NCBI GenBank assembly: GCA_041571435.1 | Contig: JBFFUI010000004.1 | Span: forward strand, 30,525-94,524 | Length of the DNA stretch: 64,000 nt | Origin: Sulfurimonadaceae bacterium | GTDB taxonomy: Bacteria > Campylobacterota > Campylobacteria > Campylobacterales > Sulfurimonadaceae | Direction of reading: 5' to 3' | Part shown: positions 56,505 through 61,814 of the stretch, piece by piece | How positions within the stretch are numbered: the stretch's first letter is position 1 | Layout of the letters: each line of letters starts with the position of its first letter | Notes under the pieces: generated by a model | Database searches by the model: none | What the model saw: only the letters and a program-made list of their open reading frames with translations | Told to the model about the DNA's origin: nothing | Program-made: the position numbers and the translations under genes

Positions 56505-57107
56505 TCACTTCTCTTTACAGGTGACATCTTTACCCAAGAGGGCCTCTTCCTTTTTTGCCTCTTCGCACTGCTGCTTCGTCAAAACACTCTCTTTGAACGT
56601 TGTTTTCCAGAGGATGGTGCCGCTTATGTTACTGTCGGTTAGGTCGTTGCGGTAGAAGGTGGCATCGCCCAGTTCACTGTTACTGAAATCTGCGTGTTTT
56701 ATCTTGGCATTGCTGAAATCTGCTTTCCAGGAGATACTCTCACTGAGATCACTGTTTTTCAAGATGGCATGGGTAAGCTTTGCCCCTTTGAAGTTAGCTT
56801 TGTGTGCGTTGACGCCGCTCAAGTTGCATGATGACAGGTCCGCTTTCCAGAAAATGGCCCCTTCAAGGTTCGCTCCACGGAGATCACTCCCTTGCAGCTC
56901 CGAGTAAAACAGGTTGGTGTTTTGTAGGTTCGTCCCTTGAAGATTTGCGCCTTTCAGCTCAAATCCGATCAGATCCAGGCCGCTCATGTCGGCACCGCTG
57001 AAGTCACAGTTCTCACAGCTCTCCTCGTCCAAAAGTCTGTCGATATGGTGCTGATCAAATCCAAAAAGAAGTGTCGATAAAACGACAGAGTAAAAAAACG
57101 TTCTCAT
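56505..57107 (-). CDS. Secreted pentapeptide-repeat protein
   Basis: Signal peptide, CENC cap, long A(D/N)(L/F)xx pentapeptide repeat run. Confidence 0.9.
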   Translation of the reverse strand: MRTFFYSVVLSTLLFGFDQHHIDRLLDEESCENCDFSGADMSGLDLIGFELKGANLQGTNLQNTNLFYSELQGSDLRGANLEGAIFWKADLSSCNLSGVNAHKANFKGAKLTHAILKNSDLSESISWKADFSNAKIKHADFSNSELGDATFYRNDLTDSNISGTILWKTTFKESVLTKQQCEEAKKEEALLGKDVTCKEK

Positions 57108-57505
57108 CTGCTCTCTGTCTCTTGTACGATCTGTTTAAGCTGTTGTAAAAAAGGTGCGGCTCTTGATGACCCGACAAATTTTCCTCTGCTTCTGCCCTCT
57201 TTGTCAACAAAGAACATCGTGGGAATGCCGAAATAGTCAAAACCGCTCGGGAGATCGTCTCTGTGAACATCTTTTTCCAACATAACGAAATGCTTCTTCA
57301 AAAACATCTGTACGTTCTGCTCTTTGAAGACCTTCTCTTTCATGTAGGCACACTGTGGGCACGATTGTGCACTGTACAACATCAAAACGAGCTTGTCGCT
57401 GTTCTGGTCATGTTGATATATCTTTTTAAAAGCGGGGTCATCCTCTATTGTCAGGCCAAGGGCAGAGATGGCAAGCAGAAGAATAAGCAGGAGTTTTTGT
57501 GGCAT
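57104..57505 (-). CDS. Exported thioredoxin-fold protein (SoxW/thioredoxin_2-like)
   Basis: Signal peptide, CPQC, M...VF, and GIPTMFFVD.EG cis-Pro motif. Confidence 0.85.
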   Translation of the reverse strand: MPQKLLLILLLAISALGLTIEDDPAFKKIYQHDQNSDKLVLMLYSAQSCPQCAYMKEKVFKEQNVQMFLKKHFVMLEKDVHRDDLPSGFDYFGIPTMFFVDKEGRSRGKFVGSSRAAPFLQQLKQIVQETESR

Positions 57506-58780: not shown

Positions 58781-59197
58781 TCAGTATGTGTGTAAAGGGG
58801 TGCGCTTATGCCGATAGTTTTTTTTTGGTTTGCACCATTGCTGAGCAGCGTCAAGCGAGGTGAAGATGCGGACTTCACCTGACCCCTCCAGATTCTGAAA
58901 AAGGGCAGCAAACTCATGACATAATCCTAGAGAGTAGATATCTCTGGCAACAAGCGCCTTTTTTATATATTGCACCGAGAGTGTCGAAGCCCAAGTGATG
59001 TAGGCCGGTTGCTTGACATCCTCTTTAGTGATATCAGACGTATCGCAGTCAAGAAAATTCCATATTGAACAGTGGTAGTGTGCGAAGGCTCTGCTTCCAT
59101 GCAGAATACCATTCGCCTCGTTCACCTCTATGATGTCGGTTCGATTGAAAAAGGTGAAGAGGCTTGCGTTATCTCCCCAAGTCACATCGTACGCCAC
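58781..59197 (-). CDS. Hypothetical protein (possibly SpoIIAA-like fold)
   Basis: GTG start with AGAGGAG RBS; C-terminal RIFTSLDAAQQW resembles SpoIIAA-like proteins. Confidence 0.6.
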   Translation of the reverse strand: MAYDVTWGDNASLFTFFNRTDIIEVNEANGILHGSRAFAHYHCSIWNFLDCDTSDITKEDVKQPAYITWASTLSVQYIKKALVARDIYSLGLCHEFAALFQNLEGSGEVRIFTSLDAAQQWCKPKKNYRHKRTPLHTY

Positions 59198-59384: not shown

Positions 59385-61814
59385 ATGCGTGTAGTGATAG
59401 TTGGTGGCGGGATCGCGGCGGTCTATATGGCCAATGCACTGATCCAAAAGTCACCTCAGACAGATGTCCTTATTGTCTCGGGCGAATCCTATAACCCTTA
59501 TGACCGTATTCACCTCTGCTCTCTTGTTGATGGCAGTGCGACAGTGGATGACATTGCATTGGAACTCGACGAACGGGTCAGGATGGAGCTGGATCAGCAC
59601 ATTGCTTCCGTCGATCCTGTCTCCAAACGTATCTTCTCCGAAAACGCGAGCTATGCCTACGACAAGCTCATCATCGCAACCGGTTCCAAGCCGCGTGCGC
59701 TTTTTGACATCGCCGGGATCGACAATGCTTCCACCTTTCGCAGTGCCAAAGACAGTTTTGCGATTGCAGACAAGATAGCAGGTGCGAACGTGGTGCTGGT
59801 GGGCAGCGGTCCCATCGGGCTGGAACTGCTGGACACCCTGAGCCGTATGGACGCGCCAAAGAGTATCACCCTGTTGTCGCGTTCCGAAAGCCTCTACGCC
59901 AAGGACCTGACGCCGACCGCGGTTGCCCTGGTCACCAGGACCTTTGAGCAGGATGAGCGGGTCAGGATCTTGTTCAATGACGAGATCGTCGACAAGAGGG
60001 TCGAAAACGGTCATATCACCAGCGTGCAGACGAAAACGACGACGATAGAGGAGCCGTACGTTATCTTCGGGGTCGGGATCTCCCCCAATGTCGATTTTGC
60101 CCGTGAGACTCTGGCGTGCGAACGCGGGATTATCGTGGATGCGCAGATGCAGAGTTCGGTCGCCGACATCTACGCGGTCGGCGAAGCGGCGCAGATGAAA
60201 GACGGCTACAGCACCGGCCATGTCAAGGAGTGCACGCGCGAGGCCGATGCGGCGATAGCGCACATCGTGGGCGAAGTCTCTGAAGGTTTTATGCGCGAGG
60301 TGAGCATGGACGCCCTGAAGGTGGGTGCTTTTTTACTTGCAGATGTCACGTCACCGTCATACGATGCCAAAGATACGACCAATGAAGAGGTCGTTATTGC
60401 GTCAAAAGCCGACAACCGGATCGACCAGTACATCATCAACCATGAGCGGTTGGTCCGTTTTATCGGGATCAACTCCAACATCGACCTGATGGCGCTTAAG
60501 ACACTCATGGAGAAGGATAAAGCGGTCGATCCGGCCTTTTTCTATGCCAACCGTCTCGAGAGCGGCCGCGGCAAACTTGTCTGCTCCTGTACGGGAAGCC
60601 ATGAGAAGGACCTTGTCGAGATCATTCAGTCCAATGCGGTGACGGACTTTGCCGAGCTCAAAGCCTTCAGCGAGGCGGGACGGGTCTGCGGGCGCTGCAA
60701 GAAAGAGGTAGCTGAACTTATCGCTTCGACCGAGGTGGATCCCATCGAAGCGGCACGTTTGAAAACCGAACGCGAGGCGGCAGCAGAGGCGGCGAAACTG
60801 GAGAAGGTGCGCCGCCGCATCGCGAAGTTCAACACCCTCCATCCGCGCAACCAGATCAGCGAGACCAACCTCGAAGAGGCGATGCACTCTCTGGACATCA
60901 GCGAAGACTACAACCGCTGGGTCTCGATGGTGACGGCGACAATGCGGCTGCACCCCGACTATGAAGAGGAGGTGGGCAAAGGGGTCAAGGCGCTCAACAA
61001 GATTCCCATCATCTGGCTGGAACTTGCCGACTGTTCGGGCAACTCAGAGGCCTTCATAAAATCCGCCAATCCCGAAGTGGACGAGCTGATCCTCAACTAC
61101 ATCTCGCTGGACTACCATGAACTGCTGATGAGTGCATCGGGTGATGCCTCGGAAAGTGTGCTTGATGATCTCATCAAAAACGATGCCGGTCAGTATATCC
61201 TGCTGGTCGAGGGGGCGATTCCGCTGGGACTCGAGGGTAAGTTCCTGCGTATCGGTCCCAAAGGGGAGACGGGGCTGGAGCTGCTGCGCCGTACTGCCGA
61301 AAAGGCGGCGGCGGTCATCGCCGTAGGCTCATGTGCCTATGACGGCGGTGTCGTTGCTGCGGCACCCAACCCGACGGGTGCCGTCGGTGTTTCAGAGGCG
61401 TTGGGGCGCGATGACATCATCAACCTGCCGCAGTGCCCGGTCAACCCGGTCAACATCGTCGGCACGCTGCTGCACTACCTGATGTTCGAGGAGTTCCCTG
61501 AGCTGGATGAAAAACGGCGGCCGAAATGGGCCTACAGCTACCGCATTCACGACAACTGCGAACGCCGAGGCCATTATGACGCGGGCGAGTTTGTCAAAGA
61601 GTGGGGCGACGAAGGGGCCAAGAAAGGGTGGTGCCTTTTTGAGATGGGGTGCAAAGGACCCTACGCCGACCTGAACTGTTCGGTGGTGCGTTTCAACGAG
61701 GGGACCAACTGGCCGGTCGGTGTCGGCCACGGCTGTTTTGCCTGCGGCGAAGGTAAAGTCGCTTTTGACAAGTATGCCAATAATCGACCGGTAGAGGATG
61801 AGAACAATGAGTAA
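59385..61814 (+). CDS. Fusion protein: NirB-like FAD/NAD(P)H oxidoreductase + BFD-like [2Fe-2S] + [NiFe]-hydrogenase small subunit
   Basis: Flavoprotein motifs IVGGGIAA, PYDR, IIATGS, VGSGPIGLE and YAVGE. BFD motif C400-x-C402-x32-C435-x2-C438. Small-subunit motifs IIWLELADCSGNSE, VEGAIP, GSCA, PQCP, HDNCERR, WCLFEMGCKGP, C..VRFN and WP..VGHGCFAC. Confidence 0.92.
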   Translation: MRVVIVGGGIAAVYMANALIQKSPQTDVLIVSGESYNPYDRIHLCSLVDGSATVDDIALELDERVRMELDQHIASVDPVSKRIFSENASYAYDKLIIATGSKPRALFDIAGIDNASTFRSAKDSFAIADKIAGANVVLVGSGPIGLELLDTLSRMDAPKSITLLSRSESLYAKDLTPTAVALVTRTFEQDERVRILFNDEIVDKRVENGHITSVQTKTTTIEEPYVIFGVGISPNVDFARETLACERGIIVDAQMQSSVADIYAVGEAAQMKDGYSTGHVKECTREADAAIAHIVGEVSEGFMREVSMDALKVGAFLLADVTSPSYDAKDTTNEEVVIASKADNRIDQYIINHERLVRFIGINSNIDLMALKTLMEKDKAVDPAFFYANRLESGRGKLVCSCTGSHEKDLVEIIQSNAVTDFAELKAFSEAGRVCGRCKKEVAELIASTEVDPIEAARLKTEREAAAEAAKLEKVRRRIAKFNTLHPRNQISETNLEEAMHSLDISEDYNRWVSMVTATMRLHPDYEEEVGKGVKALNKIPIIWLELADCSGNSEAFIKSANPEVDELILNYISLDYHELLMSASGDASESVLDDLIKNDAGQYILLVEGAIPLGLEGKFLRIGPKGETGLELLRRTAEKAAAVIAVGSCAYDGGVVAAAPNPTGAVGVSEALGRDDIINLPQCPVNPVNIVGTLLHYLMFEEFPELDEKRRPKWAYSYRIHDNCERRGHYDAGEFVKEWGDEGAKKGWCLFEMGCKGPYADLNCSVVRFNEGTNWPVGVGHGCFACGEGKVAFDKYANNRPVEDENNE

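Follow-up and report, generated by a model that had tools for sequence, protein, structure and literature searches.

The window analyzed here is a 64,000-nucleotide stretch from a Sulfurimonadaceae bacterium (assembly GCA_041571435.1, contig JBFFUI010000004.1, positions 30,525 to 94,524), and it carries a gene in which a flavoprotein, a BFD-like [2Fe-2S] domain and a [NiFe] hydrogenase small subunit are joined into one protein of 809 amino acids (aa). The BFD-like domain and the small subunit are connected by a linker, and, judging from the profile comparisons described below, aa 456-540 of the protein are homologous to the long twin-arginine translocation (Tat) leader of Campylobacterota-type HydA precursors. 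We consider it probable that this segment is the remodeled remnant of the long Tat leader of a group-1 small-subunit precursor, and that the enzyme is now a two-gene cytoplasmic hydrogenase. An initial annotation of this DNA had described the linker as a fossilized Tat signal peptide. "Fossil" is the wrong term for a former leader that is conserved, probably structured, and apparently re-used.

The 809-aa protein is the translation of positions 59385-61811 of the forward strand, and the fused architecture was found in 117 of the 120 homologs listed. At the N-terminus, the NCBIfam profile TIGR02374 (nirB) aligns its positions 1-465 of 794 with aa 3-446 (E 8.7e-43). The score of 146.8 bits is below the cut-off of 578 for this profile, and no NIR_SIR domain was found in the protein with Pfam. 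The protein has a NirB-like N-terminal module but is not a NirB-type nitrite reductase large subunit. In the full-length AlphaFold2 (AF2) model, the flavoprotein module has a confident fold, with a predicted local distance difference test (pLDDT) value of ~90. All 56 fused proteins compared have the BFD cysteines C400, C402, C435, and C438. The small subunit was identified by TIGR00391 (hydA) at 358.5 bits, against a cut-off of 179.5, in an alignment that covers aa 493-792 and begins at profile position 3. The two Pfam small-subunit domains, Oxidored_q6 and NiFe_hyd_SSU_C, lie at aa 550-697 and 717-792.

The closest relatives of the fused hydrogenase core that lack the fusion are proteins of ~405-416 aa with leaders of ~96-101 aa, and their source names include Nitratiruptor, Nitrosophilus, Arcobacter, Hydrogenimonas, Persephonella, and Venenivibrio. 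Their leaders read RRDF[LM]KW, followed by an uncharged hydrophobic stretch, L-P, F, P-L-V, A-x-A, and [RK]-x-P-[VI]-I-W, which agrees with the HydA leader pattern that the initial annotation had given. These long-leader relatives also have a C-terminal hydrophobic anchor. We made a profile from the leaders alone of 87 unfused relatives that bear the twin arginine (RR), cutting them at the P-x-x-W strand, removing the cores, and leaving out the fused-type fragment P0168. Against the linker of the 809-aa protein alone, this leader-only profile scored 30.5 bits (E 3e-7, 20,117 sequences), so the proposed alignment of linker and HydA leaders is significant. It also matched the linkers of all 117 full-length fused proteins at 22.8-41.7 bits, compared with a top score of 13.2 bits among 20,000 composition-matched shuffles. 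The alignment pairs profile positions 16-98 of 98 with aa 456-540 and thus takes in almost the entire leader, including the long n-region.

The relationship also holds in the reverse test, which used a profile of the 117 fused linkers and 20,000 decoys. All true long leaders scored above the best decoy of 15.3 bits (minimum 17.1, median 28.4). The Sulfobacillus leader scored 26.8 bits and classical Campylobacterota HydA leaders 16.7-21.8, with the HydA of the same genome at 20.1 (E 6.7e-4). The conserved Trp stands 29 residues before the P of P-x-x-W in 117/117 linkers and 87/87 unfused leaders, as expected from the earlier remark that the spacing to PIIW had been kept, and from D-[FY] to P-x-x-W the alignment between linker and leaders is gap-free. 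BLASTP alignments to unfused relatives cover 96-99% of aa 470-809, i.e., they run through the linker. Six-frame matches begin at query position 8-10, and the alignment to the Desulfovibrio vulgaris precursor entry 1h2a_S begins at residue 12 of that entry. The initial annotation had located the linker correctly: the string that it quoted is aa 471-546 and starts at nucleotide 60795, with P-I-I-W-L-E at aa 541-546 (nucleotides 61005-61022). In its range of 60795..61020, the start is exact, but the end falls inside the last codon.

The long leaders (P0153-P0242; Sulfobacillus L029/L042; L028 5704-6939) have an n-region that is conserved across phyla (Campylobacterota, Aquificota, Sulfobacillus). 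At ~96-101 aa, they far exceed the length needed for targeting.

The fused proteins lack the features by which these leaders direct export. RR is present in 0/117 fused proteins and in 87/87 leaders (which had been selected for it), and A-x-A likewise in 0/117 versus 87/87. Over the 17 residues after the Trp, mean hydropathy is 0.06 in the fused proteins and 1.09 in the leaders, and charged or His residues number 3.9 versus 0.2. In the 809-aa protein, the former h-region and its edge contain R521, H523, D525, and E527-529, which are the R, H, D, and EEE that the initial annotation had listed as gains. The C-terminal tail has no membrane anchor, since its best 19-residue hydropathy window is at most 0.92 in fused proteins versus at least 1.52 in anchored relatives. 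Moreover, the leader-like segment is internal (aa 456-540 of 809) and not N-terminal as in a functional Tat signal. The earlier view that the export signal was disabled and buried by the fusion is right in the main and agrees with these losses of RR, A-x-A, uncharged h-region, and anchor, but the accompanying move to the cytoplasm is a step that we infer.

The RR site itself varies among fused proteins. RR had been said to be replaced by SE, and in an ungapped register it does fall on S506-E507; the profile and MAFFT alignments, however, place a one-residue deletion there. Of 118 fused proteins, 40 have R and 31 have K at position 507, with Q and H in 15 each and E in 5. Many fused relatives thus retain one basic residue at this position, and the fusions with partial RR motifs that the initial annotation had suggested looking for do exist. 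E is rare, and by this distribution the S-E-D-Y of the 809-aa protein appears to be a more derived state. The deep-branching fused protein P0149 reads P-R-E-F, while P0248 and the Arcobacter loci have no Arg there.

These losses need not have followed the fusion. RR may have been lost first, and the enzyme, by then cytoplasmic but still bearing a vestigial leader at its N-terminus as NarG does, would have been fused to the flavoprotein later. We regard this order of events as unlikely, though it is the alternative that we take most seriously. It would fit the complete absence of RR from the fused proteins, which extends to the deep-branching P0149 and P0248, and the occurrence in the protein collection of shorter proteins that lack the flavoprotein (P0132, 409 aa, on a 39.8-kb contig; P0138; P0129). 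However, most short forms are on short contigs or start inside the BFD domain or linker and look like fragments or gene-calling artifacts, and no protein lacking both the fusion and RR branches at the base of the fused clade in the tree. On long contigs, P0132 and P0248, P0250 (600-604 aa) start at the BFD domain or in mid-flavoprotein, and these may be either natural splits or gene-calling artifacts.

If the segment is a remnant leader, it has been maintained. The distance from the last BFD Cys to P-I-I-W is 102 residues in 117/117 fused proteins, and the linker aligns with zero gaps in 118 proteins. Mean pairwise identity is 0.66 for the linker and 0.81 for the former h-region, compared with 0.60 for the FAD (flavin adenine dinucleotide) domain, 0.65 for the BFD domain, and 0.84 for the hydrogenase core. 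This conservation contradicts the "fossilized" and "decayed" of the initial annotation. Eleven residues are invariant in 118/118 fused proteins (R478, K481, H486, A499, W512, S514, T517, L522, V530, L537, and K539), and A518 is conserved in 116/118. Eight residues are each found in at least 80% of the fused and at least 80% of the exported proteins (R478, W512, S514, T517, A518, L522, V530, and N538), and W512 is invariant in the fused and Tat-type families alike. An AF2 model of linker plus core, based on a 116-sequence alignment of fused and exported relatives, predicts helices at aa 453-485, 493-502, 506-519, and 524-535 (pLDDT of this block 64-87; predicted template modeling score 0.74). 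Altogether, the conservation and the model suggest that the linker is probably a selected, structured element.

It is therefore improbable that the former leader is a neutral relic, a mere tether that is decaying. The drift at the RR position would suit a relic, as would the low conservation of aa 501-512, the least conserved part (0.43 identity to the 809-aa protein), and the low confidence of the linker in the full-length AF2 model. A relic would not be expected to keep one length without gaps, to match the catalytic flavoprotein domains in identity and exceed them in the h-region, to hold the invariant residues listed above, or to be predicted as helical once the alignment is deeper.

To place the fused proteins, we built trees from 42 small-subunit cores and from 30 concatenated small and large subunits. 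The fused clade is monophyletic (100/100) and falls inside a clade of RR-leader enzymes with support of 99/99 (small subunit) and 97/99 (small plus large). This larger clade includes Escherichia coli HyaA and HybO, Azospirillum HupS, Alteromonas, Sulfobacillus, the classical Campylobacterota HydA, and the long-leader enzymes, and all of its unfused members carry RR leaders. By phylogeny, the small subunit is that of a group-1 [NiFe] hydrogenase. The fused protein departs from the topology of this group in Tat export, C-terminal anchor, and cytochrome b partner. In both maximum-likelihood trees, the fused clade adjoins the long-leader and Sulfobacillus lineages, weakly (83/68; 47/39, 29/0). The group-2-like small subunits of relatives formed the outgroup and are far from the fused clade.

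The fused form is restricted in distribution. It was present in 17/301 sampled genomes of the class, 285 of which had a small-subunit match. Twelve of the 24 genomes of the source family carry it, as do five in three other families, giving four families of one order. The genus has one other sampled genome (G276, 99% complete), and it has the classical HydA only. A pattern scan of species-representative genomes found nine loci with the BFD-linker junction, with Sulfurimonadaceae, Campylobacterales, and Arcobacter in their record titles. The cultured Arcobacter iocasae KX21116 (locus L061) carries the junction in an 814-aa open frame. We also searched five fusion-less genomes for a standalone flavoprotein parent and obtained one match, a NirB-like 836-aa frame with 27% identity. 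In one further genome (G262, locus L019), a 36-residue fused-type piece, cut by the contig end, lies in a 531-aa open frame.

None of the outgroup small subunits is fused, and therefore the fusion is derived. It follows that the small subunit of the ancestor was not yet fused and began with an extension homologous to Tat leaders, i.e., a leader. The change thus appears to have run from leader to disabled linker.

Several results count against a remnant Tat leader or against parts of this account. Inside the RR-leader clade, supports are low (83/68, 74/75, 47/39, 29/0). In the approximately unbiased (AU) test, a topology with all Tat-bearing rows together and the fused clade outside was not rejected (p 0.30 for the small subunit, 0.42 for the concatenate), and a quick tree without the outside group-1 rows placed the fused clade as sister to the rest. 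The trees do not settle whether the fused clade is nested or sister, and for this reason the direction of change rests on the derived fusion. No significant score against the linker profile was obtained for E. coli HyaA, E. coli HybO, or Azospirillum, whose leaders are short. A phmmer search of 1.84 billion representative proteins with the linker only retrieved no Tat-type protein; its seven matches were six fused-type pieces and one unrelated repeat protein (P0245). Since no Tat-type protein was retrieved, a single-sequence search is too weak here. Likewise, the linker alone had no hydA, TAT_signal, or nirB match in NCBIfam/Pfam at E up to 10, only one 12-bit chance match. In the full-length AF2 model, based on 56 close homologs, the linker has pLDDT <50, and the small-subunit core is equally low; because the hydrogenase core itself falls below 50, the low linker value is uninformative. 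Finally, with respect to a chaperone for the former leader, HybE was not found in the genome, and the HyaE search of the genome gave a weak thioredoxin-like match only.

The same trees bear on the reverse direction, in which the fused protein would be ancestral and the Tat leaders of unfused relatives would have arisen from the linker after gene fission. The AU tests are compatible with a fused clade outside the sampled Tat-bearing relatives, and so is the sister position in the quick tree. Group-1 [NiFe] enzymes are Tat-exported in general, and no sampled unfused member of the inner clade, E. coli and Sulfobacillus included, lacks an RR leader; an archaeal outgroup row has one too. The fused form, by contrast, has the narrow distribution described above, among outgroups that are all unfused. 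Because gene fission would also require the coordinated gain of RR, h-region, A-x-A, and tail anchor, we consider this direction very improbable. The last alternative, that the linker is a stretch between two domains of the NirB-like parent or that its likeness to leaders is chance or convergence, could appeal to its position immediately after the NirB-like module and to the ease with which coiled charged helices match spuriously (e.g., P0245), but it is almost certainly wrong given that the nirB match, which the initial annotation had named as a possible better fit, stops at aa 446 and is absent from the linker at E up to 10, that leader-only scores are far above those of the shuffles, and that the spacing to the core is invariant in both families.

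Table 1. Coordinates of the fused gene, its parts, and the adjacent large-subunit gene in the window.
Feature	Position	Strand	Basis
Fused gene: flavoprotein, BFD, remnant leader (probable), and [NiFe] hydrogenase small subunit	59385..61814	+	Open reading frame, Pfam, NCBIfam
FAD/NAD(P)H-binding domain, Pyr_redox_2, aa 1-274	59385..60206	+	PF07992, E 6e-41 (Pfam)
BFD-like [2Fe-2S] domain, aa 398-447	60576..60725	+	PF04324, E 1e-9 (Pfam)
Linker, aa 448-540, with aa 456-540 judged homologous to Tat leaders of unfused relatives	60726..61004	+	Leader-only profile
Former twin-arginine box S-E-D-Y-N-R-W, aa 506-512 (leaders: [SN]-R-R-D-F-[LM]-K-W)	60900..60920	+	Alignments
Former h-region, aa 513-524, with R521 and H523	60921..60956	+	Alignment, hydropathy
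Former c-region, aa 525-540, A-x-A cleavage site gone	60957..61004	+	Alignment
Small-subunit core, aa 541-809	61005..61811	+	PF01058 and PF14720 (Pfam)
Large subunit, 568 aa	61798..63504	+	Open reading frame; PF00374, E 3.5e-199

For the remnant-leader reading, we propose the following origin. A gene for a NirB-like FAD/NAD(P)H and BFD [2Fe-2S] protein would have been joined in frame directly upstream of a nearly whole pre-protein gene. Once internal, the leader would have been unable to target export. The twin arginine would then have been lost, one residue by deletion and the other by drift, as would the uncharged h-region, the signal-peptidase site, and the C-terminal membrane anchor, while the former leader would have been kept as a helical element of fixed length.

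The large-subunit gene overlaps the fused gene by 17 nucleotides. The large subunit retains the C-terminal extension beyond the last His, as read from the end of its sequence, and is of the processed, catalytic type. Its top named NCBIfam profiles are the NiFeSe and Hyd-2/Hyd-1 large subunits. The genes around the hydrogenase pair are unrelated to it (a zinc-type dehydrogenase, a thioredoxin-like protein, a pentapeptide-repeat protein, and an alpha/beta hydrolase). No cytochrome b gene was found downstream, where the next gene is the alpha/beta hydrolase on the opposite strand. The hydrogenase unit here is therefore a two-gene operon without a cytochrome b gene.

With a Rossmann FAD fold at its N-terminus, the enzyme is most naturally read as cytoplasmic. 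The same is suggested by the place of the signal inside the protein, the FAD/NAD(P)H domain, the loss of the tail anchor, and the missing cytochrome b gene. The domain content further suggests that H2 oxidation is coupled to NAD(P). Electrons would pass from the NiFe site through the three small-subunit clusters to the BFD [2Fe-2S] cluster, then to FAD and NAD(P)+.

We infer a spacer or chaperone-docking role for the linker. Most likely it would serve as a spacer or strut between the N-terminus of the small subunit and the diaphorase-like module. In solved structures of [NiFe] small subunits, the N-terminus and the distal cluster are at opposite ends, and a stiff helical element of constant length could plausibly bring the BFD domain to the distal cluster. 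The former leader may also have kept the ability to dock a maturation chaperone, which would parallel Tat leaders and the NarG remnant. Tat leaders and the NarG remnant are chaperone-binding helices, and the NarG remnant binds NarJ (PMC10609526). In Helicobacter pylori, which has neither HyaE nor HybE, the unusually long HydA leader (69 aa) is bound by SlyD through its IF domain (PMC3292732). By analogy, the linker might bind a chaperone. The genome analyzed here encodes a SlyD-like FKBP (PF00254) with a Cys/His-rich C-terminal tail (G000:C37, locus L052 1474-2004, forward strand).

Put more broadly, the fused protein may represent an undescribed class of self-contained cytoplasmic H2:NAD(P)+ oxidoreductase, formed in Campylobacterales by joining a NirB-like diaphorase to a membrane-bound group-1 precursor, in which a buried Tat leader has been exapted both as a helical strut of constant length, setting the [2Fe-2S]/FAD module next to the distal cluster, and as a docking site for a maturation chaperone such as SlyD; we offer this as a tentative proposal, possible rather than probable. 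If true, such a dual role would account for the eight leader residues common to exported and non-exported enzymes. The residues held in common with working leaders suggest a second, older role that is needed in both contexts.

Ize et al. 2009, Microbiology 155:3992, reportedly dealt with the remnant Tat signal of NarG, the nearest known parallel. NarG is likewise a non-exported redox enzyme that keeps an RR-less copy of a Tat leader, and this remnant is conserved, helical, and re-used (PMC10609526). The remnant proposed here differs in being internal, preceded by 447-455 residues of flavoprotein and BFD, and in belonging to a [NiFe] hydrogenase, whereas that of NarG is N-terminal and on a molybdoenzyme. 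The NarG remnant also has a partner, NarJ, whereas a chaperone for the linker is hypothetical.

Among hydrogenases, the nearest likeness is to the long-leader membrane-bound uptake enzymes of Campylobacterota, Aquificota, and Sulfobacillus, examples of which are P0153-P0242 (~410 aa), the plasmid cluster of Sulfurimonas paralvinellae (NZ_CP041407.1), and H. pylori HydA. They share with the fused protein a small-subunit core of ~50% identity, leader/linker homology over ~83 positions, D-C-x-G-N, and the C-terminal extension of the large subunit. Unlike the fused protein, they have RR, an uncharged h-region, A-x-A, an anchor, and a cytochrome b gene, and they lack its 447 extra N-terminal residues.

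In proposed function, the fused enzyme resembles the soluble NAD(P)-linked [NiFe] hydrogenases, which we take to be those labeled 3b and 3d (HoxFUYH), in that a cytoplasmic hydrogenase would be connected through iron-sulfur (FeS) clusters to a flavin and NAD(P). The hydrogenase here is instead group-1-like, and its flavin module is a NirB-like FAD plus BFD unit (Pyr_redox_2 and Fer2_BFD) on the small subunit, whereas theirs is a diaphorase of the HoxFU/NuoEF type that contains flavin mononucleotide. Judging by its domains, the fused enzyme may thus work like the soluble NAD(P)-linked group-3 enzymes yet not be a member of that group. Group 3 is named as cytosolic [NiFe] in PMC6265342. The cytoplasmic hydrogenase of Sulfurimonas denitrificans, from the same bacterial family, is assigned to Group II and proposed as a source of reductant for carbon fixation in the available text of two papers (PMC4149538, PMC4584964). 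That enzyme is similar in being cytoplasmic but differs in being of group 2, and the available portions of these papers make no mention of a flavoprotein fusion (PMC4149538, PMC4584964). We did not find the fusion or its linker described in the full-text literature, a coverage that excludes subscription papers and supplements.

If our reading is correct, the fused gene is a molecular record of a respiratory enzyme's move from periplasm to cytoplasm. Because the export signal survives inside the polypeptide, the event could be traced residue by residue. Remnant Tat signals would then be known not just at the N-terminus of molybdoenzymes but also inside a hydrogenase. The enzyme would also point to direct formation of NAD(P)H from H2 in H2-oxidizing, carbon-fixing Campylobacterota with two genes and no reverse electron transport. 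The eight residues common to leaders and remnant suggest, in turn, that long leaders do something besides targeting. The cultured carrier A. iocasae KX21116 makes these ideas testable.

The small-subunit core itself is well preserved. Its closest solved relative is the Hyd-2-type small subunit 5xvb_S (E 9e-78). Foldseek aligned the core to solved small subunits with a TMt (template modeling score) of ~0.74, over ~260 of the 362 residues of the linker-plus-core model, in the core only. Eleven Cys/His ligands of the FeS clusters are intact. At the second proximal position, in the motif D-C-S-G-N-S-E (aa 549-555), the second Cys of C-x-x-C is replaced by N553 (61041-61043), and because of this Asn the proximal cluster would have three Cys ligands only. 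Asn is found at this position in all fused rows except P0149 (Asp), in the long-leader enzymes, and in Sulfobacillus, while classical HydA and the E. coli types have Cys. We considered D-C-x-G-N as a marker that unites the fused and long-leader clades, but rejected it because Asn or Asp also occurs in outgroups (group-2-like, Methylocystis, and Clostridium acetobutylicum rows); the motif is possibly ancestral.

The genome encodes a second small subunit (locus L001, 381 aa), which is a canonical Tat precursor with RRDFLKW. In a related genus (G174, locus L038, C22:20000-39999), the fused operon stands at the head of a hydrogenase supercluster. The order there is a GAF-PAS-GGDEF-EAL protein, the fused small subunit, its large subunit, and TetR, followed by group-2-like small and large subunits, a long-leader small subunit, a large subunit, and cytochrome b, and then by a HypF-like protein and HypF. 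The Sulfurimonas paralvinellae plasmid NZ_CP041407.1 has the same supercluster without the fused pair. In the window, a divergent 138-aa open reading frame with no Pfam match lies upstream of the fused gene (58781-59197, reverse strand). Further upstream (56505-57505, reverse strand), the genes for the pentapeptide-repeat protein (200 aa) and the thioredoxin-like protein (133 aa) overlap by 4 nucleotides, and the N-termini of both proteins look signal-like by eye.

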